Position numbers and translations under genes: made by a program
The notes under the pieces: model-generated
What the model was told of the DNA's origin: nothing
Seen by the model: only the letters and a program-made list of their open reading frames with translations
The model's database searches: none
Assembly: GCA_963663405.2 (NCBI GenBank)
Contig: CAXXSM010000139.1
Coordinates: 1 to 28,224 of the forward strand
Direction of reading: 5' to 3'
Length of the DNA: 28,224 bases
Origin: a bacterium
GTDB lineage: Bacteria > Hinthialibacterota > Hinthialibacteria > Hinthialibacterales > Hinthialibacteraceae
Shown here: one piece after another, positions 669 to 26,132 of the stretch
How positions within the stretch are numbered: position 1 is the stretch's first letter
How the letters are laid out: each line of letters begins with the position of its first letter

Positions 669-1814
669 ATGACTGATTCCAAGAGACATTCCATTTCTCT
701 TTATTGCGCGTGGAAGAAAATTTTCCTAATTCCCCTCGTTTTCCTTCTCGCCTCCTGCATGGACGCAACGCCGCCAATCATCAAAGCAGTCAAAAGCGGC
801 TCGCTCGAAGAAGTGCAGAAAGCGATTCGATACAAAGCGGATTTGAACGCGGTTGACGAAAGGGGATTAACGGCGCTGCTGATTGCGATGGGAGCAAAAC
901 AAACACAGCAAGACAAAAGTTATCAAAACTACGATATCGCAATCGCATTAATCGAAGCCGGAGCGGATTTGAACGCCGAGAATCAAAACGGCATTACCGT
1001 TTTGGACTACGCTATATGGTGGAGTAAAACTGATCTCTTCAAATTGCTGGTCGAAAAAGGCGCCAAAATAAACGATATAGGCAATTCCACCCTCGTTCGC
1101 GCGATACACTGCAGAAACATAGAGATTTTCGATTTCATTTTAGAGAAAACAGAATATGAGTATCCAGAAACAGCATATGGATCCGCCGTGAAGGCAGCGG
1201 TTTCGAGCGATAAACACACCGTTGAATTCTTGACAAAACTCCTCAATCGAGGGGCCAATATACATGGATATTTTCGAGAAGCGGCGCAATATGGAAATGT
1301 GGAAGCGATGAAATTCCTACTCCAACATGGCGCCGACATCAACGAAACATCTATTGATGGTGGGAGCGGATTAATTTCCGCTTCGTATAACGGTCATGTC
1401 GAAGCAGTACGATTTCTACTCGAAAAGGGCGCCGATACATCCATGATGCAAGACCAGCGCAACGCTTTGTATTGGGCGGTAGATAAACAACACTCAGAAA
1501 TCGTCGATCTTCTTCTCGAAAAAGAAATCGACACAAGCGGCGCCTTAGTTCTCGCGGTGGAAAAAGGGGATGTGAAGATCATAAAAAAACTCCTAAAATA
1601 TAGCGTGGATTTAAACGAAACAAATCTTAAGGGTTATACTCCATTAACCATCGCTGTGATTCAAAGCGATAAAAAAGCGGTTCAAATCCTAATTGAACAC
1701 GGCGCCGATGTATACCATCCAGACAAAAACGGGATGACCGCCCTGCAATACGCCCAAGAGTTTGAAGATGAAGAAATGATAAAACTCCTAAAAAACGCGG
1801 GCGCGAAAGAGTAA
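669..1814 (+). CDS. Ankyrin-repeat lipoprotein, array copy 2
   Basis: Repeated ankyrin motifs (GLTALLIA, GITVLDYA, GYTPLTIA, GMTALQYA); signal peptide with lipobox LAS-C; SD gaggag upstream. Confidence 0.93.
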   Translation: MTDSKRHSISLYCAWKKIFLIPLVFLLASCMDATPPIIKAVKSGSLEEVQKAIRYKADLNAVDERGLTALLIAMGAKQTQQDKSYQNYDIAIALIEAGADLNAENQNGITVLDYAIWWSKTDLFKLLVEKGAKINDIGNSTLVRAIHCRNIEIFDFILEKTEYEYPETAYGSAVKAAVSSDKHTVEFLTKLLNRGANIHGYFREAAQYGNVEAMKFLLQHGADINETSIDGGSGLISASYNGHVEAVRFLLEKGADTSMMQDQRNALYWAVDKQHSEIVDLLLEKEIDTSGALVLAVEKGDVKIIKKLLKYSVDLNETNLKGYTPLTIAVIQSDKKAVQILIEHGADVYHPDKNGMTALQYAQEFEDEEMIKLLKNAGAKE

Positions 1815-1882
1815 GCGCCGAAAGGAGCGTACACAATGACCTGCGCCAGGAGACATTCTATTTCTCATTATTGTACGTGGAA
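1737..1882 (+). repeat. Near-identical gene-junction direct repeat (copy A; partner at 2916-3061)
   Basis: Manual alignment with 2916-3061: 4 mismatches in 146 nt, covering the 3' end of one gene, the spacer and the 5' end of the next. Confidence 0.9.
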
Positions 1883-2993
1883 GAGAATCTTCCTTATCCC
1901 TCTCATTTTCCTTCTCTCTTCCTGTATGGATGCGACGCCGCCGATCATCAAAGCGGTCGAGAGCGGCTCGCTCGAAGAAGTACAGAAAGCGATTCGATAC
2001 AACGCGGACCTGAACGCGCTTGATGAGGAGGGGATGACCGCGCTAATGATTGCGGTCCGGGGAGTGCGGACACGTCTCCCCAATGGACAAATCCATTTAA
2101 CGTCCTTAGACACCAGGATCGCCAAAGCCTTGATTGAAGCCGGGGCGGATTTAGATACCTCTAAAAAAAATACTACGGTGTTAGACTTAGCGATCTTGCG
2201 AAATGAACCGGATCTCGTTGAACTGCTTCTTGAAAAGGGCGCCCCGCTAACTACTTTCGATAATTCTTCCCTTAAACACTCCATCTATTGTGGCAACCTG
2301 GATATTTTCGATCTCATATTCAAAAAAACAATAAAGACGAATCCATCCGTATCTTGGCAGCCCATCATGTACACAGCAGCGGGGATCAAAAAAAACACCG
2401 TGGAAATCATGACGAAATTATTGGATCGAGGCGCCAGCGTTAAAGGATGTTTTTATATTGCGGCGGAACACGGAAATATGGAAGGGGTAAAATTCCTGCT
2501 ACAACACGGAGCAGATCTCAACGAAACAAATTTCAATGGAGTAACTGGTTTGTTTCTCGCCGCGAAAAGAGGACATCTTGAAACAGTTAAATACCTTCTT
2601 GAACAAGGCGCTGATTTGTCAAAAGGCAAATATCAATTTGACGCCCTGCTGCTGGCGGAGGAACGCGGTTATCATGAAATCGTGGATATCCTTTTTGATT
2701 ATGGCATCAATACAAGCGGCGCTTTATTCATTGTAGAAAAAACCGGACATGCGCATGTCATGAGAAAACTCCTGAAGCGCGGCGCGGATACAAACGAAAC
2801 CAACCCCGATGGATACACTCCTTTAACTTTCGCCGCTGTTCATGGAGGATTATACGAAGTCCAAATCCTGATTGAACATGGCGCCGACGTCAACCACCCA
2901 GACAAAAACGGAAAAACCGCCCTGCAATACGCCCAAGAGTGTGAAGATGAAGAAATGATAAAACTCCTCAAAAACGCGGGCGCGAAAGAGTAA
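1836..2993 (+). CDS. Ankyrin-repeat lipoprotein, array copy 3
   Basis: Same architecture as copy 2; lipobox LSS-C; SD aaggag. Confidence 0.93.
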   Translation: MTCARRHSISHYCTWKRIFLIPLIFLLSSCMDATPPIIKAVESGSLEEVQKAIRYNADLNALDEEGMTALMIAVRGVRTRLPNGQIHLTSLDTRIAKALIEAGADLDTSKKNTTVLDLAILRNEPDLVELLLEKGAPLTTFDNSSLKHSIYCGNLDIFDLIFKKTIKTNPSVSWQPIMYTAAGIKKNTVEIMTKLLDRGASVKGCFYIAAEHGNMEGVKFLLQHGADLNETNFNGVTGLFLAAKRGHLETVKYLLEQGADLSKGKYQFDALLLAEERGYHEIVDILFDYGINTSGALFIVEKTGHAHVMRKLLKRGADTNETNPDGYTPLTFAAVHGGLYEVQILIEHGADVNHPDKNGKTALQYAQECEDEEMIKLLKNAGAKE

Positions 2994-3061
2994 GCGCCGA
3001 AAGGAGCGAACACAATGACCTGCGCCAGGAGACATTCCATTTCTCATTATTGTACGTGGAA
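2916..3061 (+). repeat. Near-identical gene-junction direct repeat (copy B)
   Basis: Offset 1179 nt from 1737-1882; more diverged versions at the junctions near 600-720 and 4080-4200. Confidence 0.9.
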
Positions 3062-4175
3062 ACGAACCATCCTTGTCCCTCTTGTTATCCTTCTCGCCTC
3101 CTGCATGGATGCGACGCCGCCGATAATCAAGGCGGTCGAGAGCGGCTCGCTTGAAAAAGTGCGGAAAGCGATTCGATACAAAGCGGATCTGGAAGCGGTT
3201 GACCAATACGGCAATACAGGGCTGATGATTGCGATCCAAGGAAAACGGCATGATTATGGGAACAGAATCTACAGTTACGGATCTCCGAACTTCGATATCG
3301 CCAAGGCTCTGATCAAAGCCGGGGCAAATGTGAACGCCGATAATCGAAGTGGCGTAACAGTATTAGACTGCGCCATCGGGAAAGCTCAACTCGATCTTAT
3401 AAAACAGTTGATTGAGAAGGGAGCGAAAATAAACGCTCTCGATGATTCCACTCTGACAAAAGCCATCGAATGTAGAAATTTTGAGATCTTCAATTATCTA
3501 TTTGAGAAGACAAAAGACGTGAAACAAACTTCAGCTTACGTGTCCGCCATGCGCGCGGCGGCGGAATGGGAAGCCAAAGCGATTCCGATCATGACGAAAC
3601 TTCTCGAGCGGGGAGCCAGTGTAAAAGGGAGTTTTTACGCAGCGGCGGAGTGCGGAAATTTGAAGGCGATGGAATTTCTTCTCCAACATGGCGCTGATGT
3701 AAATGAAACTGGTTCTAGTGGTATAAGTGGATTGGCCTGCGCCTCTCTTAAAGGCGATCTCAAAACAGTACGATTTCTTCTTGACCGCGGCGCCGATCTT
3801 TCAAAAGAAAATACTCAATACAACGCCCTATACTACGCACTATTTAATGGTCACACAGAAATCGCTGACCTGCTCATTGAAAAGGGAATCGACACAAGCG
3901 GCGCCTTGGTCCTCGCGGCGGAGAAAGGTCAAGTGAGCATCATGAAAAAACTGTTTACGCGGGAGGTGAACACCAATGAAACCAATACGGATGGCTACAC
4001 GCCTTTAACCGTTGCGGTGATTCGCGGGGGATATGACGCGGTTCAATTTCTTATAGAAAACGGAGTGGACGTCAACCATCCAGACAAGAACGGGATGACC
4101 GCCCTCCAATACGCCCAAGAGTTTGAAGATCAAAAAATGATAAAACTCCTGAAAAATGCAGGCGCGAAGGAATAA
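3015..4175 (+). CDS. Ankyrin-repeat lipoprotein, array copy 4
   Basis: Same architecture; lipobox LAS-C; SD aaggag. Confidence 0.93.
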   Translation: MTCARRHSISHYCTWKRTILVPLVILLASCMDATPPIIKAVESGSLEKVRKAIRYKADLEAVDQYGNTGLMIAIQGKRHDYGNRIYSYGSPNFDIAKALIKAGANVNADNRSGVTVLDCAIGKAQLDLIKQLIEKGAKINALDDSTLTKAIECRNFEIFNYLFEKTKDVKQTSAYVSAMRAAAEWEAKAIPIMTKLLERGASVKGSFYAAAECGNLKAMEFLLQHGADVNETGSSGISGLACASLKGDLKTVRFLLDRGADLSKENTQYNALYYALFNGHTEIADLLIEKGIDTSGALVLAAEKGQVSIMKKLFTREVNTNETNTDGYTPLTVAVIRGGYDAVQFLIENGVDVNHPDKNGMTALQYAQEFEDQKMIKLLKNAGAKE

Positions 4176-4196
4176 GCGCGAATCGGAGCCCACTCA

Positions 4197-5354
4197 ATGA
4201 CCGGCGCGGGTAAATATTTCCAATCGGTTTGGATACGCAAGGAAAGAATTCTGTTCTCCCTGCTTCTTCTCCTCACATCATGCGCCGATACTACCCCTCC
4301 CATCATCAAAGCCGTGAATAGTGGATCGCTGGAAGAAGTGAAAAAAGCGATCCAATACGGGGCGGACCTGAACGCGACAGACGAGAAAGGGTATAGCGGT
4401 CTCCTTATCGCGATCCGGGGACGGTGGACACGTCTCGACAGTGGACACACATTTCTCGAAAAACCGGACGTCAATATCGCCAAAGCTTTGATCGAAGCTG
4501 GAGCGGATATCAGTATTCCAAATCGAATGGGTTACACGGCGTTACGATACGCGATTTGGGAAAAACAAACGGATCTCATCAATTTATTATTGGAAAAGGG
4601 AGCAAGTATAAGCATACTAGAAGACTATTTCTTCTATGACATCTGCTACCGGTGTAACCTGGAAATCATCGATCTTGTATTAGACAAGATTGAAAAAGAA
4701 AAACGAACCACAATTTATCAAACCGCCATGCAAGCCGCGTCGCGCCGAGAGAAAGATTCCATTGAATTGATGACGAAACTACTCGATCGAGGCGCTAATG
4801 TGAAAGGAAGTTTTTATTTCGCGGCATTAAATGGAAATATAGAAGCAATGGAATTTCTTCTCCAACACGGCGCTGATCTCGATGAAACGAATTCAATTAA
4901 CAAAAGTGGCTTGTATTACGCGATTGAAAACGGTCATCTCGATGCGGTACGATTTCTTCTTGAAAAAGGAGCCAGTATTACAGCCGGTAAAGGCATATTA
5001 GAGGCCCTAAAAACGGCAGTTGAGAAAGGTCATGCCGAAATCGTCGATCTCCTTCTAGAAAACGGTGTCAACAAACACGGACTTTTGACAATTGCAGCGG
5101 AAAACGGACAAATCGAGGTGATGAAAGTATTATTAATGCGGGGCGCAAATCCTAACGAAACCAACCAAGAAGGTCACACGCCATTAACTTCCGCTGTGAT
5201 TCATGGTGGATTAAAGCCACTCCAATTCCTAATCGAAAAGGGTGCGGACGTCAATCACCCAGATAAAAAAGGAGTCACCCCCATTCAATACGCCCAAGAT
5301 TACAAAGACGAAGAAATGATTGTGATACTGAAAAAGGCAGGCGCGAAGGAGTAA
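4197..5354 (+). CDS. Ankyrin-repeat lipoprotein, array copy 5 (most divergent N-terminus)
   Basis: Same architecture; lipobox LTS-C; SD ggag. Confidence 0.93.
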   Translation: MTGAGKYFQSVWIRKERILFSLLLLLTSCADTTPPIIKAVNSGSLEEVKKAIQYGADLNATDEKGYSGLLIAIRGRWTRLDSGHTFLEKPDVNIAKALIEAGADISIPNRMGYTALRYAIWEKQTDLINLLLEKGASISILEDYFFYDICYRCNLEIIDLVLDKIEKEKRTTIYQTAMQAASRREKDSIELMTKLLDRGANVKGSFYFAALNGNIEAMEFLLQHGADLDETNSINKSGLYYAIENGHLDAVRFLLEKGASITAGKGILEALKTAVEKGHAEIVDLLLENGVNKHGLLTIAAENGQIEVMKVLLMRGANPNETNQEGHTPLTSAVIHGGLKPLQFLIEKGADVNHPDKKGVTPIQYAQDYKDEEMIVILKKAGAKE

Positions 5355-5387
5355 GTCTCAACAAGGTAAAACACCCGCTCAACAAGT

Positions 5388-5451: not shown

Positions 5452-6912
5452 TCAATACCGGTAATGCTCCGGTTTATAAGGGCCTTCAATCGGCACGCCG
5501 ATATAATCCGCCTGTTTCTGTGTGAGTTTGGTGAGTTTGGCCCCCAGTTTACCTAAGTGTAAACGGGCGACCTCTTCATCCAATTCTTTGGACAGACGGT
5601 ACACGCCGGTCGCTTTTCGTTCTTTCCAAAGATCAATCTGCGCCAAGACTTGATTGGTAAATGAGTTCGACATCACGAATGAAGGATGTCCCGTAGCGCA
5701 GCCCAGATTGACCAAACGCCCCTCAGCCAACATAAAGATCGAATGGCCATCCGCGAAAGTGAACTGATCCACCTGCGGTTTAATATTCATTTTCTTGATC
5801 CCAGGGATCTTTTCGAGCGCGTTGACCTGGATCTCGTTATCGAAATGACCGATGTTACAAACGATGGATTGATCCTTCATCTTTTCCATGTGCTCTGCCC
5901 GAATGACATCACAATTGCCGGTTGTTGTGACGAAGATATTCGCTTCCTCCAGGGCGTCTTCAAGCGTCGTCACTTCAAAACCTTCCATGCAGGCCTGCAG
6001 CGCGCAGATTGGATCAATCTCGGTCACCAGCACACGGGCGCCAAAGCCACGCATCGACTGCGCGCAGCCCTTGCCGACATCGCCATATCCACACACACAG
6101 ACGACCTTGCCCGCGACCATCACATCCGTGGCCCGTTTGATACCGTCCGCCAACGATTCGCGGCAGCCGTAAAGGTTATCGAATTTCGATTTCGTTACAG
6201 AGTCGTTGACATTGATTGCCGGGAACAGAAGCGTTCCCTTCTCCATCATTTCGTATAGCCGATGAACGCCCGTCGTTGTCTCTTCGGAAACTCCTTGAAT
6301 CTCCTTGACTATCTCGTGCCATTTCGTGGGATTCTTCTGGAGTTCTCTTTTCAGCAACGCGTTAATGATCGCCAGTTCCTTGATTTCCGTCGGTTCATCA
6401 AGAAGTGTGGGATCGTCTTCCGCCTGATAGCCGCGATGGACCAACAACGTCGCGTCGCCTCCATCATCCACAATCAGATTCGGCCCTTTGCCGCCGGGGA
6501 ACGAAAGCGCCTGAAGCGTGCATTCCCAATACTCTTCGAGCGATTCGCCTTTCCACGCGAAGACCGGCGCGCCGGTTTCCGCGATAGCGGCGGCGGCGTG
6601 ATCCTGCGTGGAGAAAATATTGCAGGAAGCCCAGCGCACATCCGCGCCCAGCGCCTTGAGCGATTCAATCAACACCGCCGTTTGAATGGTCATATGAAGC
6701 GAACCGGTGATCCGCGCTCCTTGCAACGGTTTTTCGGCCCCGTACTTTGCACGGACCGCCATCAGGCCCGGCATTTCCTCTTCCGCAATCGTGATTTCTT
6801 TGCGTCCGAAATCAGCCAAGGCTTTATCGGCGACTTTATTGGGCAGGCCGGAATAATCCGGCAACACGATGCCCGCGAGATCGATTCCAGACCGTTCAAG
6901 TACTTGAGTCAT
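5452..6912 (-). CDS. ahcY: Adenosylhomocysteinase (SAH hydrolase)
   Basis: Motifs [91 protein letters not shown]. Confidence 0.98.
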
Positions 6913-15829: not shown

Positions 15830-16388
15830 TAGATTCTTATCAGGATCCAATCTAACGATTCATCGCTCAAACCACTTGCAGGTTTTGTGAGAACTTTTTC
15901 AAAAGAGTTCTGTCGATATTTCCAAAGTATAGCGATATACTTATTAATACCACTTTCCAATCCAGTCCGTTCGCGGTAAGATAACGAGTTTAGTAATTGC
16001 AGTTTATTATAAAATTTAGAAAGAATAAAAGTAAGAGCATTAAAATCAGTTTGTTACGAACAGAATAAAGAACTGACGGTCAGCAACTTGCCACACATGG
16101 GAATGGAAAAATCATTCAATTTGAAATGGTGAAACATCCCATTGAGGTAGATGATTTTGTAGTAATTATTCTGTTGATTTTTATTAAATTATGTGTTAGC
16201 ATATTATTAATACGAATATATTTAAAATTATAGTATTTGGAATAGAAAAACGAATTCGTATATCTGGGAAAGAAGAGGAAAGTTAAAAAGAACAACTTGC
16301 GGCGGTAAAGGATTTCAATAAAAACGTAGCGCGGTCGTATATCAGAATGAGACAAATGATTTTCAATCGATTCGCCTTTCATTTTGTT

Positions 16389-16478
16389 TAAACCACCATG
16401 ATTGAGATCATAACGCGCGAATGAAAATGAGTCGTGGAAGTGTTTACGAATGAGATAGTTATAGGGACTCATTTTCAT
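16389..16478 (+). repeat. Dispersed repeat (partner 19235-19285) overlapping a 13-bp perfect inverted repeat
   Basis: 40/51 ungapped identity with 19235-19285; ATGAAAATGAGTC (16421-16433) / GACTCATTTTCAT (16466-16478). Confidence 0.75.
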
Positions 16479-16842
16479 ATAAAAAAGGGAAAAACAAAAT
16501 TTAAAAACCTGCCGATAAAGATATTTATGGGTTAATCTACAAGAGAGACCATAATTTTTCTGCAGGAATGAATCACCGCCGCATCTTATATGAATTGTAT
16601 CACTCATTAGGAATGATTTTTTTTGTGGTGTATGATACTGTTTTAGAGTGTAATTCTATCGATTTGAAGACTCGAACTTCTTGCTTTGCTCGAAGGAGAC
16701 GGATAAAGTAGATATTTCTTGCGGCTTTACAAAAGATTGCTTTGAATATCCGCCTTTTTGCGATGTAAAGAGAGCAATGAATGAGTTTTTTCAAAAGAAA
16801 CTCCCGATCCGTCAAGATGAGAGAGTCAGGAGACAATCACCC

Positions 16843-17640
16843 ATGAAACGTGTGGCCTCGAGCACGAATTTAGCGACATCTTATCCTCATGCATGCGAGC
16901 AGGAAGAACGAGTTTTCATTCACCCTTCCGCCGTCGTGGATCCAAGTGTGCGCCTGGGACAAGGCGCGCAAATCCATGCCAACGCCGTTATCGAACGTGG
17001 CGTTCAAATCGGAGAAAAAGCAGTCATTTTATCTGGATGTTATATCGGTGAAGAGTGTTCCATTGGAGCTCAGACGGTTTTGTATCCTCAAGTGGTACTT
17101 CGGGAAAAAACGGTTGTAGGAAACAAAGTCATCATTGAATCCGGTGTGGTGATCGGCAGTGATGGATTCGGTTATGCGAAAGAGAAAAACGGGGTGAATT
17201 GCAAAGTGCCTCAAGTTGGCCGTGTGACGATCGAAGATGAAGTATTGATTGGCGCCAATTCCACAATTGATCGAGCCACTCTCGGCCGAACGGTCATCGG
17301 TAAAGGAAGCCGGATCGGAAATCTGGTGCAAGTCGGACATAATGCTGTTGTAGGAGAAGAGACTCAGATCGGTGACAGTGTTGGAGTCTGTGGAAGCTGT
17401 AAAATTGGAAATTCCGTCGCGGTTGGACATGGAGCGGGATTGGTCGGTCACATTCGCATTGGAGATGGATCCAACATTGAGAACGGCGCCGGTGTCAGCA
17501 AAGATGTCCGGGACGGCGCGCGGATGATCGGCTCTCCCGCAATGGAAGAGGACGGTTATAAAACGTTTCAACAATACTTGGAACGTTTGCCTGAACTCCT
17601 CGCCCGCATTTCCGCCCTTGAGAAGAAATGCGCTCCCTAA
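16843..17640 (+). CDS. lpxD: LpxD-like hexapeptide-repeat acyltransferase lacking the N-terminal domain
   Basis: [55 protein letters not shown]; start chosen from the AGGAG SD at 16828 (alternative ATG at 16777). Confidence 0.75.
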
Positions 17641-18882: not shown

Positions 18883-19205
18883 ATGTATAAATTAGAATTT
18901 ACTGAAGAAGCAAGGCAAGAAATAAGACAAAAAATCAAATATTCTGCACAGAAATGGAGTAAATTACATTTACAAAAATACTCAAATGAATTGAAACGAC
19001 AAATAATAGAGAATAAAAAAAGCATCCAAAACATTGTCAAACACGGGACGATGTTTTACTTGGTATCCGTATTAAAATATATAAAGGCAACAAGATTATC
19101 TATATAATAAATGAAGATAACAAAACGGTGACTGTGCTGGCAGTCTTGAGTATTTATCAAAACCTAGATCAAAACATACTGAAACAACGAAAAAAACAAT
19201 CCTGA
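18883..19205 (+). CDS. ParE/RelE-superfamily toxin (1-nt frameshift near the A7 run 19015-19021)
   Basis: MYKLEFTEEARQEIRQKIKYSAQKWS..., then in shifted frame HPKHCQTRDDVLLGIRIKIYKGNKIIYIINEDNKTVTVLAVL; basic protein of about 107 aa. Confidence 0.78.
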
Positions 19206-19234
19206 ATTTTCCTCCATTAATAAATCAAATACTA

Positions 19235-19325
19235 TAAACTACCATGATTGAGATTACAACGTGCAGACGAAAATGAGTTGCGAGAATCGTAGTAGGGTGG
19301 ATCATGCTTTATAGATCCATCCTGC
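19235..19325 (+). repeat. Dispersed repeat followed by a GTAG-type REP-like hairpin
   Basis: 19235-19285 matches 16389-16439; GTAGGGTGGATC-N10-GATCCATCCTGC (19292-19325), 12-bp stem with two G-T pairs. Confidence 0.7.
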
Positions 19326-19477
19326 ATGCTGAGGACGGAGAAAGTAAAAGGATAACGTAAAAGTACAAATTATCAAAAAATCAAGAAACATCTATTAAAC
19401 TTATATTAAGGGATATATAATATAAGTCATCATTATCCACTCTTTCTTATTTATGACTGGATAACATAGGTAATAAG

Positions 19478-19520
19478 AATCATGAATATCCTTTAATCCT
19501 GGCCATCCAGATTCAGACAA
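19478..19520. repeat. AATCCT-type short-period repeat half ending in GATTCAGACAA
   Basis: AATCATGAATATCCTTTAATCCTGGCCATCCAGATTCAGACAA with ATCC/ATCA recurring every 9 nt; its end is 12/13 complementary to 19657-19669 inside xerC. Confidence 0.5.
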
Positions 19521-19538
19521 TTAACGAGTAGCAATTCC

Positions 19539-20516
19539 ATGACCACTCTCTCAGAATCAGCCAATCAATTCCTTCAATACTTGATCACGGAAGAATGGCG
19601 GTCTCCTCATACGATTGAAAATTACCGGCGGGATATTAAATTTCTGAAAACATACCTGTCTGAATCAGGCTATCCATCCGTTTCAGACTCTGAATCTGAG
19701 CCGGATTTTGATCTTCTCATTATCGACACTCTCTGCATACGCGGTTTTATGACCTATCTCGTTGATCGTGGAAACGTTCCACGGACCATCAACCGGCGGT
19801 TGGCGGCTTTGCGCTCGTTATTCACATTTCTTGAACGAAGGGGCTTGGTTTCGAAGAATCCCATCACCCCCATCCCCTTCATGCGGGAAGAGAAACGCCT
19901 GCCTGTGTTTCTCGACCAAGAACGGGCCGTACAACTCGTCGAACATCCAACGCAGGATGTATCTTCCCCAACAGAGAATGACACAACATCCGCATTGGCG
20001 CTCCGTGATCGGGCCATGTTGGAGGTATTATACGCGTCAGGCATGCGGATATCCTCTCTGACACGTCTGAATCTTGTCGATTTGGATCTTCGTCAGGCCA
20101 CCGTTCACATCTTGGCGAAAGGCAGGAAAGATCAGATTCTTCCCTTAACGGATGTGGCCGTCACATCATTGAAGTCGTATCTTGCCGCGCGTAAAATTCT
20201 ATTATCAAAACCGGAAACTAAACGGAATAAGAAAGCCCCCGAAGCCTTGTTTATCGGACGATTCGGTGAACGTCTCACCCCACGAGGCGCGCAGTTGCGG
20301 CTAAAAAAATTCGCGCGATCCCTTGGTCTGGGCAAAACCACGCCCCACACGCTCCGGCATTCCTGCGCCACCCACTTGCTGGAAAACGGAGCCGATCTCC
20401 GATTCGTGCAGGAACTCCTCGGTCACAGCAGCCTCTCTACCACACAGCGGTACACCCACGTCACGCTCTCACGCATCCAAGACGTCTATCAAAAAACTCA
20501 TCCCCGATCGAAATAA
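19539..20516 (+). CDS. xerC: Tyrosine recombinase XerC/XerD family
   Basis: SPHTIENYRRD, TINRRLAALRSLF, RDRAMLEVLYASGMRIS, KGRK, TPHTLRHSCATHLLENGADLRFVQELLGHSSLSTTQRYTHV (R-K-H-R-H-Y intact). Confidence 0.9.
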   Translation: MTTLSESANQFLQYLITEEWRSPHTIENYRRDIKFLKTYLSESGYPSVSDSESEPDFDLLIIDTLCIRGFMTYLVDRGNVPRTINRRLAALRSLFTFLERRGLVSKNPITPIPFMREEKRLPVFLDQERAVQLVEHPTQDVSSPTENDTTSALALRDRAMLEVLYASGMRISSLTRLNLVDLDLRQATVHILAKGRKDQILPLTDVAVTSLKSYLAARKILLSKPETKRNKKAPEALFIGRFGERLTPRGAQLRLKKFARSLGLGKTTPHTLRHSCATHLLENGADLRFVQELLGHSSLSTTQRYTHVTLSRIQDVYQKTHPRSK

Positions 20517-21411: not shown

Positions 21412-22731
21412 ATGTCAGATCACATAACTCAATCAAAACATTACAGGGACACGCTCTATCAATTTCTCTTCGACGATGAGGATGCGCGCGTATGCAAAGA
21501 TATCCCCGAACAATCGTGTTCGGATGTCCCTGCGAACTTTTTCCGGCTTGGCGCCGCGCAGACATTAACCAAACTGGCGGATGAACTCGCCAACGCCAAA
21601 ACCGTCCTCCCCTGGCTATTGGAATCGGTTGGAGCCTCTTCCTTCTGGACCGGTTTTCTGGTTCCGATCCGCGAATCGATTTCCATGCTCCCCCAGCTCG
21701 TCATTGCGAACTATGTACGCAGTTTTACTTTACGGAAAAACGCTCTGGCTTTAAGCGCCATACTTCAAAGTTTGGCGCTGCTGGCTCTCGCGGCGATTGC
21801 GTTCTTCATGCGTGGTCCTTGGACCGGACCGGCGGTGATAATCATCCTGCTGTTGTTCAGTCTGGCCCGTGGATTATGTTCGGTCGCTTCCAAAGACGTA
21901 ACCGGGAAAACAATTCCCAAAAAACGGCGGGGACGGCTCACGGGATATGCGGCGGCGGTGTCCGGCGTTCTGACATTGATCCTAGGGCTTGGGCTTGTGA
22001 CGTGGGTGGGCAAGGACGCGTCTCCCCCGCTATTCACTTTCCTCCTCGGTTTCGGAGCGGCGCTCTGGTTCCTCTCCGCAGGATTTTTTTCCCGCATCGA
22101 AGAAGCGCCGGGAGCCACGGAGGGAGGTGGCAACGCTCTAGGTGAAGCGCTCAAACGGTTGGAAATTCTGCGCGCCGACGCTCCATTCCGCCGATTCGTT
22201 CTCGTGCGCGCATTGCTCATATCCACTGGACTCGCCGGGCCATACTATATCATGCTGGCGTACCAATCCGGCGCGGGTGGAGAACTGTTCGGATTCTTCG
22301 TACTGGCCAGTGGATTCGCCTCCGCGGTCAGCAGCGCTTTTTGGGGCCGGTATGCGGACCAATCCAGCCGAACGGTGATCTTGACCGCCTCTTCCATCGC
22401 TTCCATGCTGGGAGTTATTCTTTTTATTCTCGATCATACCGGCGTGCTGCAAGCGGGCTTCGCGTGGGTGATCCCCCTCGCGTTCTTTGGGGTATCCATC
22501 GCGCACAGCGGTGTGCGTATCGGCCGGAAGACGTACATCCTCGATCTAGCGGGAGGAACAAAACGCACGGACTATGTGGCGGTCAGCAACACAGTGATCG
22601 GCGCGATCCTGTTGCTCAGCAGTTCCCTCGGCGCTCTCACCCCCTGGTTCGGCGCCTCCGGCATGTTGCTCCTCTTTTCACTCCTCAGCCTCACCGGAGT
22701 CATCCTCGGCGCCCAGCTTCCTGAGGCATAA
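21412..22731 (+). CDS. MFS transporter
   Basis: About 12 hydrophobic segments; LVPIRESISMLPQL, KDVTGKTIPKKRRGRL, WGRYADQSSR, GVRIGRKTYILDLA, YVAVSNT. Confidence 0.88.
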   Translation: MSDHITQSKHYRDTLYQFLFDDEDARVCKDIPEQSCSDVPANFFRLGAAQTLTKLADELANAKTVLPWLLESVGASSFWTGFLVPIRESISMLPQLVIANYVRSFTLRKNALALSAILQSLALLALAAIAFFMRGPWTGPAVIIILLLFSLARGLCSVASKDVTGKTIPKKRRGRLTGYAAAVSGVLTLILGLGLVTWVGKDASPPLFTFLLGFGAALWFLSAGFFSRIEEAPGATEGGGNALGEALKRLEILRADAPFRRFVLVRALLISTGLAGPYYIMLAYQSGAGGELFGFFVLASGFASAVSSAFWGRYADQSSRTVILTASSIASMLGVILFILDHTGVLQAGFAWVIPLAFFGVSIAHSGVRIGRKTYILDLAGGTKRTDYVAVSNTVIGAILLLSSSLGALTPWFGASGMLLLFSLLSLTGVILGAQLPEA

Positions 22732-22785
22732 ATGGAGCGCGGGCAATCCATGCGTTATCTATATCTTGATTCACAGAAATATATC

Positions 22786-22815
22786 TGGACAACAAGCGCT
22801 ATTTCAAGTTATACT
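22786..22815 (+). promoter_or_regulatory. Putative sigma70 promoter of the peptide-peptidase module
   Basis: TGGACA-18 nt-TATACT, upstream of SD AAGAGGAG (22841-22848). Confidence 0.5.
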
Positions 22816-22857
22816 GAGCTATCATCACCCATTAATTAAAAAGAGGAGAAATAAGTC

Positions 22858-23037
22858 ATGGCTCTGGATACTCGTGAGAAAGAGCAGTTATATAAAAAAG
22901 CTAAAGAATTTGCATCTTCTGAAAAAGGAAAAAAGAGCGCTGAAAAGGCTTTTAAGATCGCCAAAGAATTCAACGAAAAATTAGATAAATCTACAAAGAT
23001 TGATCCCAAAAAATTACATGAACCCATTACATTGTGA
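22858..23037 (+). CDS. Small basic helical protein, 59 aa (not in ORF track)
   Basis: Strong SD AAGAGGAG 9 nt before ATG; MALDTREKEQLYKKAKEFASSEKGKKSAEKAFKIAKEFNEKLDKSTKIDPKKLHEPITL; stop 3 nt before the next ATG. Confidence 0.8.
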   Translation: MALDTREKEQLYKKAKEFASSEKGKKSAEKAFKIAKEFNEKLDKSTKIDPKKLHEPITL

Positions 23038-23040
23038 TCC

Positions 23041-24603
23041 ATGGCATCTGATTATGAAGTAATCCCTTATTCGATCGATAAACTAAAGCAACTTCTATCC
23101 GAACTTGCAGAAGTTCCATTATCCGTCATTGAATCAAAATATCACAGCACATATTTCGATCATTATTTTAATGAACTTAAACCTCAAATCATAGTTGTGG
23201 AAAAAGAATATATAGACCACGATTATTTAGAAGATTATGCAGGCTACTACGCTCGTTGCTTTAAACCCTACAAGCGCACTTGTACGCGTCTCCACTTTTT
23301 TACACAGGACTTTTCAGAAGAAGATTTTAAATCACTGCTCCAAGGCTTTGAAAGCAGTGGTGTTGATGATGAAAAAAGCAAATCAATCACGATTGTTGAT
23401 TTGCATAATAGTTATCTTGGTTTTATTGTTGTTAAACCTCTTCCTCAGACTATCTTTGGCCGGACTTGTCTTCAGACATATTCCGAAGATGGAAAAGATG
23501 GGATTCGATATTTTCCTAGTTTAAGAAAATATGAGGCCAATCTGTTTGGCATCCCCCTTGATGTTGATACACTTGCTTTTCAAGAACAAGATAGGGTAGT
23601 ATCCGCCTGCGCAACCAGCGCTCTCTGGACGGTCTTTCAAGGAACAGGGAAACTTTTTCAGCATTCTATTCCATCGCCTGTTGAAATTACAAAAATGGCA
23701 GTCAAATCTCAAGATGAGTATTCCTATTTACTCTATGATAGAGAGTTTCCAAACGAAGGTTTGACAATCCCACAAATGACTCAAGCAATCAAATATCTAG
23801 GACTTGATCCATGTACAATTGCTGTTGAACATAATATCAATTATCTAAAAAATGCATTGTATGCTTATCTGCGAGGAAAAATACCTATCCTATTTACTTT
23901 TAGCCTCTATGCCCCAATCAACAATAGAAATAACTCATCAATTATACGTTCTGATCGTGTAGGCAATCATGCAGTTGCGATAACAGGTTATCAATTATCA
24001 AATACAGATCCAACACCATTTTGGGATATCAAATTACTCCTTACTGCTTCCCGTATTAATAAAATCTACGTACATGATGACCAGTTAGGCCCATTTGCAA
24101 GAATGAATTTTCATGATACAAAAGTGACTGATAACGAAACAAATGAAGAATATGACACATTGAGTACAACGTGGAAAAATACTAGATATAATAGTGATAA
24201 TATGCTAGCGGCACCTCGTTTTATGTTGATACCTGTATACCCCAAGATTCGTATTCCGTTTAAACTCATTCTTCAAATAATAATTCAATTCGATCAATTT
24301 TTTGAGAGCAGACGATCACATGCAATTATTCCACTCGATCATCGGATCTATTGGGATATTTTCCTTACAACAATCAATGATTTAAAAACTGATATCTTAT
24401 CATCTTCTTATTATCATGGCGAAGATAAACGTCAGTTTTTAACTAAAAGTATGCCTCGTTTTTTATGGAGAACTACCGCGTATTCAGAAAAAACGCCTAT
24501 CTTTGACCTTCTTTTTGACGCGACCGATATTCCCCAAGGTGATTTTTTGTCTTTTGTAATAAAATATGATGAGGGGATAGCCGTATCTTTAAAAGGTATT
24601 TAA
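23041..24603 (+). CDS. Uncharacterised protein with a central papain-like (C39-like) Cys-His-Asp domain
   Basis: Q183 in FQEQD, C190 in SACATSALW, GLTIPQM, IPILF, H310 in NHAVAITGY, D346 in IYVHDDQLGP; order matches the clan CA fold; AT-rich. Confidence 0.7.
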   Translation: MASDYEVIPYSIDKLKQLLSELAEVPLSVIESKYHSTYFDHYFNELKPQIIVVEKEYIDHDYLEDYAGYYARCFKPYKRTCTRLHFFTQDFSEEDFKSLLQGFESSGVDDEKSKSITIVDLHNSYLGFIVVKPLPQTIFGRTCLQTYSEDGKDGIRYFPSLRKYEANLFGIPLDVDTLAFQEQDRVVSACATSALWTVFQGTGKLFQHSIPSPVEITKMAVKSQDEYSYLLYDREFPNEGLTIPQMTQAIKYLGLDPCTIAVEHNINYLKNALYAYLRGKIPILFTFSLYAPINNRNNSSIIRSDRVGNHAVAITGYQLSNTDPTPFWDIKLLLTASRINKIYVHDDQLGPFARMNFHDTKVTDNETNEEYDTLSTTWKNTRYNSDNMLAAPRFMLIPVYPKIRIPFKLILQIIIQFDQFFESRRSHAIIPLDHRIYWDIFLTTINDLKTDILSSSYYHGEDKRQFLTKSMPRFLWRTTAYSEKTPIFDLLFDATDIPQGDFLSFVIKYDEGIAVSLKGI

Positions 24604-24759
24604 AGTGGTTCTGATAGTGAGTCTTTTCCTATTGGCGTTAGAAGAATTATGAAAAAGTTCGCATGAAAACATGAAATTTCCAAGCAATTAATTTGTGTTT
24701 ATCGATACTATCTTTTATTCGTTCACAAGGGGATATCGTAGAGTCTAATAACGGATACA

Positions 24760-26132
24760 TCAATTCCGCAAACTATTCACCGGCGCCGGAATATGCCCCC
24801 CATGTTCAACAAACGCTTCCGCTCCTTGGGGGCTTTGGGGCGCGCAGATTGTGCCGGCGCCGAAGAGGCCTCCGAAATCGACGTAGTCTCCTACGCTCTT
24901 CCCTGGGACGGGGATTACGCGCACGGCGGTGGTTTTTCCATTGAAGACTCCAATCGCAGCTTCATCCATGATCATACCGGCGATCGCCGCCGCTTGGATA
25001 TCGCCCGGCAGGAGGATCATATCCAAGCCGACGGAACAGACCGCCGTCATAGCTTCGAGTTTTTCGAGGCTGAGCGTTCCTTCTTTCACCGCTTCCGCTA
25101 AGGCGTGATCCTCCATCACAGGCAGAAACGCGCCGGACAGCCCACCGACAGAGGAAGACGCGAAGATCCCCCCTTTCTTTACTGCGTCGTTCAGCATCGC
25201 GACCGCCGCTGTGGAGCCGGGAGCGCCGATCTTCTCAATGCCCATCGCTTGATAGATCTCACCCACGCTGTCACCCACTTTCGGTGTCGGCGCGAGCGAT
25301 AGATCCAGCACACCGAATTCCACGCCCAGTTTCGCCGCGACTTCCCGTCCGATCAGTTCCCCCGTGCGCGTGACCCGGAAAGCGATATGCTTGATCTCTT
25401 CCGCGATTTCATCGAGAGTGGCGCTTGGATTTTGTTTGATCAGCCGTTCAACGGCGCGCTTGACAACACCCGGCCCGCTAACGCCTACATTAATCACACA
25501 CGAGGCTTCCCCCGCGCCAAGAAACGCGCCCGCCATGAAAGGATTATTCTCCGGGATATTCGCAAACACGACTAACTTTGCGCAGCCGAATCCATATTTA
25601 TCTTTGGTGGCTTCAGCGGTTTGAAGGATAATCTCACTCACCGACCGGATCGCGTCCACATTCATCCCGGCTTTCGTTGTCCCCACGTTGATCGAAGAAC
25701 AAAGGCGCTGCGTTTTGCTTAACACATCCGGCAGCGATTGAATCAAAGTGGCTTCACCGTCCGTCATGCCTTTCTGAACCAATGCGGTGTACCCGCCTAT
25801 TAAATCGACATTCACATCCGCGGCGGCGCGGTCCAACGCGTTCGCGATATGCAACGCGTCTTCAAGCCCCCGGCCTTCAAGAAGGCGGCTCGCGGGAGAA
25901 ATCGCAAGCCGTTTGTTAATGATCGGTAAGCCATACTTAGTCGTCAGCCCATCGCACACGGACACAAGATCGCGCGCATACGATTGGATTCTTTTATACA
26001 CTTGAACGGATGTCTCCGCGATGCTCTGCCGTTCGCAGCCGTCCAAGTTAATCCCATCGTGACCGTCCGCACATCAAGGTTTTCCTCTTCCAGCATCCGG
26101 ACGGTATTGAGAATATCGTCTACTCTTCGCAT
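24760..26132 (-). CDS. DUF711 / UPF0210 (PFL-like) family protein (1-nt frameshift near 26053)
   Basis: ENLDVRTVTMG, PIINKRLAISP, FGCAKLVVFANIPENNPFMAGAF, INVGVSGPGVV, DLSLAPTP, LEAMTAVCSVGLDM, IPAPVNSLRN. Confidence 0.92.

Follow-up and report, generated by a model that had tools for sequence, protein, structure and literature searches.

The DNA analysed here (the window) is a stretch of 28,224 nucleotides from a bacterium of the family Hinthialibacteraceae (contig CAXXSM010000139.1 of assembly GCA_963663405.2). It contains an AT-rich two-gene module encoding a small, Lys/Glu-rich helical protein of 59 aa and a large, three-domain protein that resembles cytoplasmic cysteine proteases (Table 1). 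We found that the two genes are paired in nearly all related loci and naturally fused in one, that the large protein retains an invariant catalytic set and adopts a papain-like fold in its model, and that the predicted complex of the two proteins passes its controls. Our preferred reading, to which we assign a probability of roughly 45%, is that the protease is held inactive by a product-like plug formed by the tail of the small protein and that the pair works as a toxin–antitoxin (TA) or abortive-infection module. We infer that the partnership is one of inhibition rather than of another kind, and the same applies to the toxicity, the trigger and the targets.

Under this mechanism, a self-contained mobile module would supply a three-domain cytoplasmic cysteine protease together with a helical protein of ~60 residues. 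The small protein would clamp onto docking helices of the C-terminal helical domain of the protease, and its conserved tail, ..DP..L.EP(F/I)T(L/V/I)-COOH, would thread along the substrate-binding side of the cleft, placing the free C-terminus at the catalytic cysteine in the geometry of a bound cleavage product and keeping the protease shut. In effect, it would behave like a leader peptide that has no cargo and does not leave the enzyme. If the small protein were lost, displaced or degraded, for instance during phage infection, the protease would be freed, possibly with the N-terminal domain sensing the trigger, and would cut cellular or phage proteins containing a similar motif. Some proteases retain their own C-terminus in the active site after it has been cleaved, and the tail-plug reading draws on this analogy as well as on the staphopain/staphostatin pairs and on SpeB with its inhibitor.

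Gene pairing, catalytic domain and predicted complex

The small protein, whose tail ends ..IDPKKLHEPITL directly before the stop codon, has counterparts throughout the family. A same-strand open reading frame (ORF) of 53–96 aa lies just 5' of the large gene in nearly all related loci. Using a profile trained on 42 upstream ORFs ending in P.T[LVI], we identified 73 segments in 72 of 80 loci, 30 of which were outside the training set. The occurrence of the small ORF is far beyond chance. Its gene was located directly upstream of the large gene in 68 loci (gaps of 3–124 nt), directly downstream in three (L012, L018 and L058) and fused to it in one (L063, 5962–7731). In the fusion, the protease frame runs on into the small-protein homologue, which makes up its final ~45 residues and ends ..FTI before the stop codon. 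Among the eight profile-negative loci, visual inspection showed a similar small ORF in five (L044, L049, L069, L072 and L077), no upstream sequence is available for two, and the last, L066, has a 5'-truncated large gene and no small ORF. We also considered read-through of the stop codon joining small and large ORFs that share a frame, and rejected it because the gap lengths of other loci are not divisible by three. Two individual loci show further arrangements: tandem small-protein genes (5186–5383 and 5776–5973) precede a single large gene in L019, and the fusion gene of L063 adjoins a DDE transposase gene.

The tail follows the consensus VDP..L.EP(F/I)T(L/V/I), with the stop codon immediately after it. 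Counting back from the C-terminus of the 73 segments, V, I or L is found at position −12 in 67, D at −11 in 42, P at −10 in 35, L at −7 in 55, E at −5 in 33, P at −4 in 56, F, I or V at −3 in 47, T at −2 in 56 and L, V or I at −1 in 62. The preliminary description of the module, made from the DNA letters and their translations, had anticipated a small upstream ORF with a P-x-T-(L/I) end in homologues, and 42 of the 73 tails do end in P.T[LVI]. In 53 of the 73, T[LVI] stands right before the stop, and therefore the free C-terminus itself seems important. An N-terminal W..S.EG motif is also common. More distant relatives on plasmids are accompanied, in the same position, by a RefSeq hypothetical gene of 52–57 aa with a diverged tail. 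Searches of Pfam, NCBIfam, PADLOC and PHROGs gave no usable match for the small protein; a Pfam scan of 35 of its sequences returned scattered chance matches, with no family in more than two members, and a PDB profile search gave weak helical matches and no staphostatin.

The full-length AlphaFold model of the large protein reached a predicted local distance difference test (pLDDT) of 79 and a predicted template-modelling score (pTM) of 0.79. In this model the central domain (aa 184–404) has the two-lobe fold of papain-like enzymes (clan CA), and nearly all of the top 50 structural matches were clan CA enzymes. The domain aligned to staphopain C with Z 10.4 (root mean square deviation 3.7, 155 residues aligned), to the pseudomurein endoisopeptidase PeiR with Z 10.3, to the C39 domains of PCAT1 (9.9), an LahT-type protease (9.6) and ComA (within 9.4–9.9), and less closely to SpeB (8.8–9.3), UfSP2 (8.6), ZUFSP (8.0), cathepsin B (8.0) and Josephin (6.4). 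Foldseek returned three matches at E ≤ 0.001, all of them staphopain, with staphopain matches spanning E values from 2e-4 to 1e-2.

Q183, C190, H310 and D346 are invariant in an alignment of 271 sequences, and Q181, E182, Q183, D184, C190, A191, W196, H310, G316, H345, D346 and D347 are identical in at least 97% of them. As far as sequence can tell, this set fits clan CA, with a Cys nucleophile, a His base, a third Asp/Asn and an oxyanion-hole Gln before the Cys. The catalytic set is retained even in forms of 719–1072 aa at only 26–34% identity. These results agree with the preliminary description, which had singled out the same four residues, proposed a clan CA-like enzyme and listed motifs in the N- and C-terminal regions; the alignment identifies the latter as conserved motifs of the family.

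Modelled alone, the N-terminal domain (residues 1–182) reached a pLDDT of 87.5 and a pTM of 0.85 and matched no solved fold (best VIA-align Z 4.0, best Foldseek E 0.18). A best Z of 4.0 is low, because models without a clear match usually reach 7–8 in this type of structure comparison. The invariant residues of the domain are E54, Y57, D59, D65, R83, H85, Y125, G127, G140 and C143, and library and structure searches detected no nucleotide-binding family or fold in it. No hydrophobic signal sequence was found at the N-terminus of the large protein.

In the predicted complex, the helix of the small protein lies on the C-terminal helices of the protease and its tail is placed at the active site. 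The ipSAE score was 0.84 in three of three runs, compared to 0.00, 0.57 and 0.01 in the controls; 58 of 80 solved complexes attain the mark set for this score, as do 2 of 110 mismatched pairs, counts that are only a rough guide here because our own alignments of both families were used. The runs shared at least 97% of contacts, and the pLDDT of the partner was at least 84. On the large protein, the predicted interface comprises residues 190–191 (including the nucleophile), 239–246, 307–311 (including H310), 328–332, 348, 393–394 and 511–520, so that 190–191, 307–311 and 348 fall within a single interface. On the small protein, it includes tail residues 52–59, as would be expected from the docking of the tail at C190 that had been suggested earlier. 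The best-defined contacts are those of small-protein residues 28–46 with helix 408–423 and residues 261 and 268 of the large protein, and those with the least predicted error join 408–423 to small-protein residues 28–42. The prediction, which expresses the confidence of a model, is in agreement with the natural fusion, the fixed end of the tail and the earlier docking idea.

Family distribution, mobility and neighbouring genes

We identified 1853 relatives of the large protein at E ≤ 0.001 (90%-identity clusters), the top 120 of which match over their full length at 44–53% identity and, where named at all, are called "hypothetical". An exhaustive HMMER search matched 3539 representatives of 50%-identity clusters. 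When one genome per species was considered, a relative was encoded in 231 genomes out of 185,579 species, including members of Nitrospirota, Planctomycetota, Bacteroidota, Cyanobacteria, Desulfobacterota, Gamma- and Betaproteobacteria, Zixibacteria, Armatimonadota and others. The large gene is single-copy in the window's own genome (8.4 Mb, 82% complete).

Known families account for neither protein. The large protein has no family match in Pfam, NCBIfam, PADLOC or PHROGs, with zero Pfam matches at E ≤ 1 for the window's copy; neither protein matches any PADLOC-DB 2.0.0 family at E ≤ 1, and a sequence-profile search of the PDB was null for the large-protein family (best E 0.3). The ESM Atlas yielded unnamed clusters and one with Peptidase_C39_2 in 11% of its members, and a search of its named clusters with the N-terminal domain returned nothing usable. 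A published description of the pair was not found in the literature searched, although supplementary tables of defence-discovery preprints, outside that coverage, might list it. These null results are consistent with the earlier view that the pair is not an already characterised system. The catalytic fold and the idea of a protease co-encoded with its inhibitor are already known; the novelty lies in the family as such, in its N-terminal domain and in the proposed arrangement of a C-terminal tail plug with a helical partner.

Longer forms of the large protein include three proteins of 942–1072 aa and plasmid-encoded forms of 719 and 726 aa, whose extra parts match no Pfam family. A distant subfamily (L081:4869–7028, L082:4896–7076 and P0269–P0271; 719–1072 aa, 26–34% identity) retains all catalytic and N-terminal-domain invariants, and two of its members are on Shewanella and P. 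aeruginosa plasmids, beside a TrlF-like ATPase gene and a multiubiquitin/ThiF/DUF6527 operon.

Next to the module, little else is shared between loci. After clustering of 741 flanking ORFs, the large gene was common to 77 loci and the next family to only seven, which shows that no third gene is conserved. The evidence as a whole describes a self-contained, obligate pair. No transporter is conserved in these ORFs or in a Pfam scan of 146 immediate neighbours, and the same sets contain no conserved E1, ThiF or ligase gene; the ThiF/multiubiquitin operon beside one plasmid copy is a separate system. The preliminary description had likewise noted the lack of a transporter and of a signal peptide.

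The module DNA was matched in one of 30 relatives of the window genome and weakly in a second. Its G+C content is below that of the surroundings in 59 of 69 loci with enough flanking sequence (by 5.5 points on average). Distant relatives (29–34% identity) are carried by four of 72,556 plasmids, where they adjoin genes for TrlF-like ATPase, ThiF/multiubiquitin, caspase-family and transposase proteins. Based on the patchy multi-phylum spread, the few relatives, the low G+C content and the plasmid copies, the large gene is therefore a horizontally moving accessory gene. Homologues of the MFS and DUF711 genes that flank the module in the window are on different contigs in the 30 relatives, and for this reason an empty insertion site could not be demonstrated there. 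In L019, the G+C content of the module is 26 points below that of its flanks (0.46 vs 0.73).

Neighbouring genes across the loci include restriction-modification systems of type I, type IIG/ISP and type III, YgjP, Mrr, SNF2-PLD helicases, a DUF1156 methylase, a short prokaryotic Argonaute (pAgo) with SIR2-APAZ, GajA, HmaA/HmaB, the candidates PDC-S06, PDC-S09 and PDC-S19, ImmA/IrrE-type peptidases with helix–turn–helix partners, and several transposases. To put numbers on this, we compared a sample of neighbours (115 of the 276 ORFs within two positions of the module, mainly those of at least ~186 aa and leaving out near neighbours with clear housekeeping Pfam matches) with 19 arbitrary stretches (contig 1, 20001–30000) of the window genome and its relatives. 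A PADLOC match at E ≤ 1e-5 was found for 34 of the 115 neighbours, spread over 26 of 77 loci, compared to 9 of 106 ORFs in the control regions.

Competing readings of the partnership

Several known systems combine some of these features. In the staphopain/staphostatin pairs of S. aureus (ScpA/ScpB and SspB/SspC) and in SpeB with its inhibitor, a papain-like protease is co-transcribed with a small, dedicated cytoplasmic protein that occupies its cleft in the substrate direction, as is predicted here, and staphopain is also the best fold match of the large protein. Staphostatins, however, are beta-barrels of ~105–110 aa encoded downstream of a secreted protease, whereas the partner described here is a helical protein of about half that size, usually encoded upstream, in which the predicted plug is the free C-terminus; the protease has two extra domains and no signal peptide. 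No sequence relationship to either component was found by Pfam and PDB profile searches, and the beta-barrel inhibitor and secreted zymogen by which a staphopain/staphostatin-type operon is usually recognised are both absent. By analogy, the pair may also be compared to papain-like interbacterial toxins with immunity proteins, such as the Cpe1-type effectors of contact-dependent inhibition (CDI) and type VI secretion outlined in PMC12136450 and CdiA-CT/CdiI (PDB 8ssm), in which a small protein encoded alongside neutralises a growth-arresting toxin of papain fold (Z 8.0–8.1). Such toxins occur as C-terminal domains of secreted polymorphic proteins, whereas the protein here is stand-alone and cytoplasmic, has a conserved N-terminal domain and has no secretion genes nearby.

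The organisation of the locus resembles that of type II TA and protease-based abortive-infection modules: the genes are adjacent and co-directional, with the small one usually first and separated by a short gap, their order is occasionally swapped or the two are fused, and the module is patchy, mobile and accompanied by an excess of defence genes. As in type II TA systems, the two genes form an adjacent pair (71 of 80 loci plus the fusion), and direct binding of their products is predicted by the complex model.

Several observations count against inhibition within a TA or abortive-infection module. Neither protein matches a known TA or defence family, and a DNA-binding domain of the kind common among type II antitoxins is not recognisable in the small protein. 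A tail at the catalytic Cys would be just as compatible with a role as substrate, acyl donor or cofactor, 14 of the 73 tails deviate from a [TSN][LVIF] ending, and the 25 best-defined contacts of the complex all involve helical residues 28–46 of the small protein (23 of them with helix 408–423). Many neighbouring genes are housekeeping genes, such as gyrB, mutS, rpiB, argG and others, and we found zero matches among 50,697 phage records. The enrichment of defence genes, which the preliminary description had suggested as a check and which is the one finding that points to a defence role, is real but moderate at about threefold (32 of 139 vs 9 of 106 when unsubmitted ORFs of at least 186 aa are counted as misses; odds ratio 3.2, Fisher p 0.003), with a small control drawn from other taxa and neighbours picked partly by length and lack of housekeeping Pfam matches. 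It is less pronounced when only strong matches (<1e-30) are counted (19 of 139 vs 5 of 106, p 0.03).

The tail at the nucleophile could also mean, in line with the choice of substrate, tag or inhibitor left by the preliminary description, that the enzyme uses the small protein as its dedicated substrate, as an acyl donor or as a tag, the pair forming a minimal Pup- or ubiquitin-like tagging or untagging system with the N-terminal domain as the activating part. This is an unlikely reading, but one with several points in its favour. The extreme C-terminus is the most conserved part of the small protein and has a fixed end position, the interface lists it together with C190, and the fold neighbours include the deconjugases UfSP2, ZUFSP and Josephin; in ubiquitin-like and Pup-like systems with cysteine deconjugases (UfSP, ZUFSP), a small-protein C-terminus is presented to a papain-fold Cys much as it is in the predicted complex. 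A second activity is possible because the N-terminal domain combines invariant charged residues (E54, D59, D65, R83 and H85) with no known fold. A free carboxylate, however, cannot acylate a thiol without activation, and we detected neither a conserved ATP-using or E1-like gene nearby nor a nucleotide-binding fold in the N-terminal domain. The small protein is helical rather than beta-grasp and ends in Leu, Val or Ile rather than Gly, and the cassette contains no E1, E2 or ligase gene.

Less probable again, in our judgement, is a reading without conflict, in which the protease is an ordinary, regulated cytoplasmic enzyme that always needs the small protein, either as a cofactor for its activation or as a folding helper. 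Precedents would be the pVIc peptide of the adenovirus protease and propeptides supplied in trans; the strict pairing, the natural fusion and the large helix-on-helix interface predicted with the C-terminal domain would all suit such a role, as would the many loci among housekeeping genes. Yet the patchy, cross-phylum, low-G+C spread, with its plasmids and defence genes, fits an accessory element better, and a tail lying in the cleft, as the complex prediction has it, would block access of substrates. The remaining alternative, a leader peptide with the C39-type processing protease of a bacteriocin or RiPP (ribosomally synthesised and post-translationally modified peptide) pathway, is very improbable. 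The C39/Peptidase_C39_2 enzymes PCAT1, ComA and LahT are among the best fold matches and share the catalytic fold and the Gln-x6-Cys ... His arrangement, and both cases involve docking of an amphipathic helical peptide whose end comes to lie at the Cys, which here is a model prediction. In addition, one homologue at 34% identity, from a P. aeruginosa plasmid, scores 24.7 bits against Pfam Peptidase_C39_2 (PF13529), just above the gathering cut-off of 24 bits. Against this, the window's protein and all of 30 family members fail that cut-off (only two of the 30 match weakly, best E 0.076), the stop codon directly behind the conserved tail leaves no room for a core peptide or other cargo, a Gly-Gly site is missing (only one of 73 tails ends in GG), and no ABC (ATP-binding cassette) transporter or modification enzyme is conserved nearby. 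We found no ABC-transporter fusions or adjacent core-peptide genes for family members either.

A more far-reaching form of the tail-plug reading, which we regard as doubtful, is that the family represents a phylum-spanning conflict or anti-phage system on a new principle, with a non-covalent product complex whose plug is released by an N-terminal infection sensor; in a bolder variant, the N-terminal domain would activate the C-terminus of the peptide for tagging by a single enzyme. Irrespective of its role, this is a large multi-phylum family without a name, Pfam family or solved relative, and its well-modelled domain of ~180 residues matches no known fold. It may provide a compact, testable case of protease control in which the C-terminus of a trans-encoded peptide fills the active site. 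If the defence or TA reading is true, a protease-based two-gene system would be added to the catalogue, and the tail consensus EP(F/I)T(L/V/I) would be a direct guess at the cleavage motif and hence at the targets.

The window's copy and its surroundings

Table 1 Features of the two-gene module and its flanking genes in the window.
Feature	Positions	Strand	Basis or remark
MFS (major facilitator superfamily) transporter gene	21412–22731	+	Flank; library match
Sigma-70-like promoter match, TGGACA-18-TATACT	22786–22815	+	5' of small gene; 10 of 12 consensus positions
Shine-Dalgarno-like GAGGAG	22843–22848	+	9 nt before ATG of small gene; from sequence
Small partner gene, 59 aa	22858–23037	+	Ends TGA; homologue in 72 of 80 related loci
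Codons of tail residues 52–59 (KLHEPITL)	23011–23034	+	Predicted to reach catalytic cleft
Large gene, 520 aa up to the TAA; three-domain protein resembling cytoplasmic cysteine proteases	23041–24603	+	ORF
N-terminal domain, aa 1–182	23041–23586	+	Model; invariant E54, R83, H85, Y125, G127, G140
Central papain-like (clan CA) domain, aa 184–404	23590–24252	+	Structure comparison of model
C190 codon, predicted nucleophile, motif QEQD-x5-CATSALW	23608–23610	+	Invariant in 271 of 271; in predicted interface
H310 codon, predicted catalytic His	23968–23970	+	Invariant; 307–311 in predicted interface
H345-D346-D347 codons, invariant HDD, predicted third catalytic residue	24073–24081	+	Alignment
C-terminal domain, aa 405–520	24253–24600	+	Helices 407–426 and 511–520 form predicted docking surface
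In-frame TAA, then 20 codons and TGA	24601–24666	+	Continuation aligns with C-terminal tail of homologues
DUF711 gene	24760–26046	−	Flank; library match

The preliminary description had presented the module as an AT-rich insert between GC-rich convergent genes, and this is what the composition shows: G+C is 0.32–0.41 over 22750–24700, compared to 0.55–0.62 in the MFS and DUF711 genes, which converge on it from either side, and 35.3% in the module overall, compared to 47.7% for the rest of the window. The two ORFs have the lengths and spacing given at that time, with 3 nt between the TGA of the small ORF and the ATG of the large one. Of the promoter and strong ribosome-binding site also claimed, the Shine-Dalgarno-like GAGGAG is present. 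The promoter-like site should be considered a consensus match only, because a scan of the AT-rich region for sigma-70-like sites gave 12 where 7.4 were expected.

The module had been drawn as ending at 24666, which is the stop codon of a continuation rather than of the large ORF itself. The ORF stops at the TAA at 24601–24603, and its frame continues for 20 codons to the TGA at 24664–24666; this continuation aligns with the C-terminal tail of homologues. The TAA may have arisen recently as a true nonsense mutation, or it may reflect a strain variant or an error. The only sequencing run that contains the locus covers it at a depth of 2, and its independently built contigs are interrupted here, one stopping at 24602 and the next beginning at 24604; because of the 2× coverage and a contig break exactly there, the stop may be an error or a variant. 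It is conceivable, if somewhat unlikely, that the window's copy is a decaying pseudogene and the locus inactive, whatever the role of the family. Such decay would fit the loss of 20 conserved codons and the truncated or frameshifted large genes at four of 80 related loci (L020, L039, L052 and L054), and the lost tail may matter for partner binding, because the model places residues 511–520 in the interface. However, just the last 20 residues are affected, the small gene and all catalytic motifs are intact, and the reads are few and the contigs broken at this very base. No RNA run was found to contain the locus, and contigs at depth 2–4 are uninformative on expression. A run from another study (X3) yielded a 333-base contig over 22701–23045, which includes the small gene and its upstream region; its 16 substitutions relative to the window and its loss of 12 bases at 22762 show that a related strain exists elsewhere.

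Other parts of the window contain features of separate interest. At 19539–20516 (+), 2.3 kb upstream of the module, an ORF of 325 aa has a translation that, judged by eye, resembles XerC/XerD-type tyrosine recombinases; an AT-rich stretch lies 5' of it (G+C 0.31–0.34 at 19000–19600), and it could mark a mobile region. A second kilobase of low G+C (0.365, compared to a window average of ~0.47) is found at 16001–17000. Finally, four head-to-tail ORFs of 381, 385, 386 and 385 aa, spaced by ~20 nt at 669–5354 (+), resemble a tandem array of paralogues.

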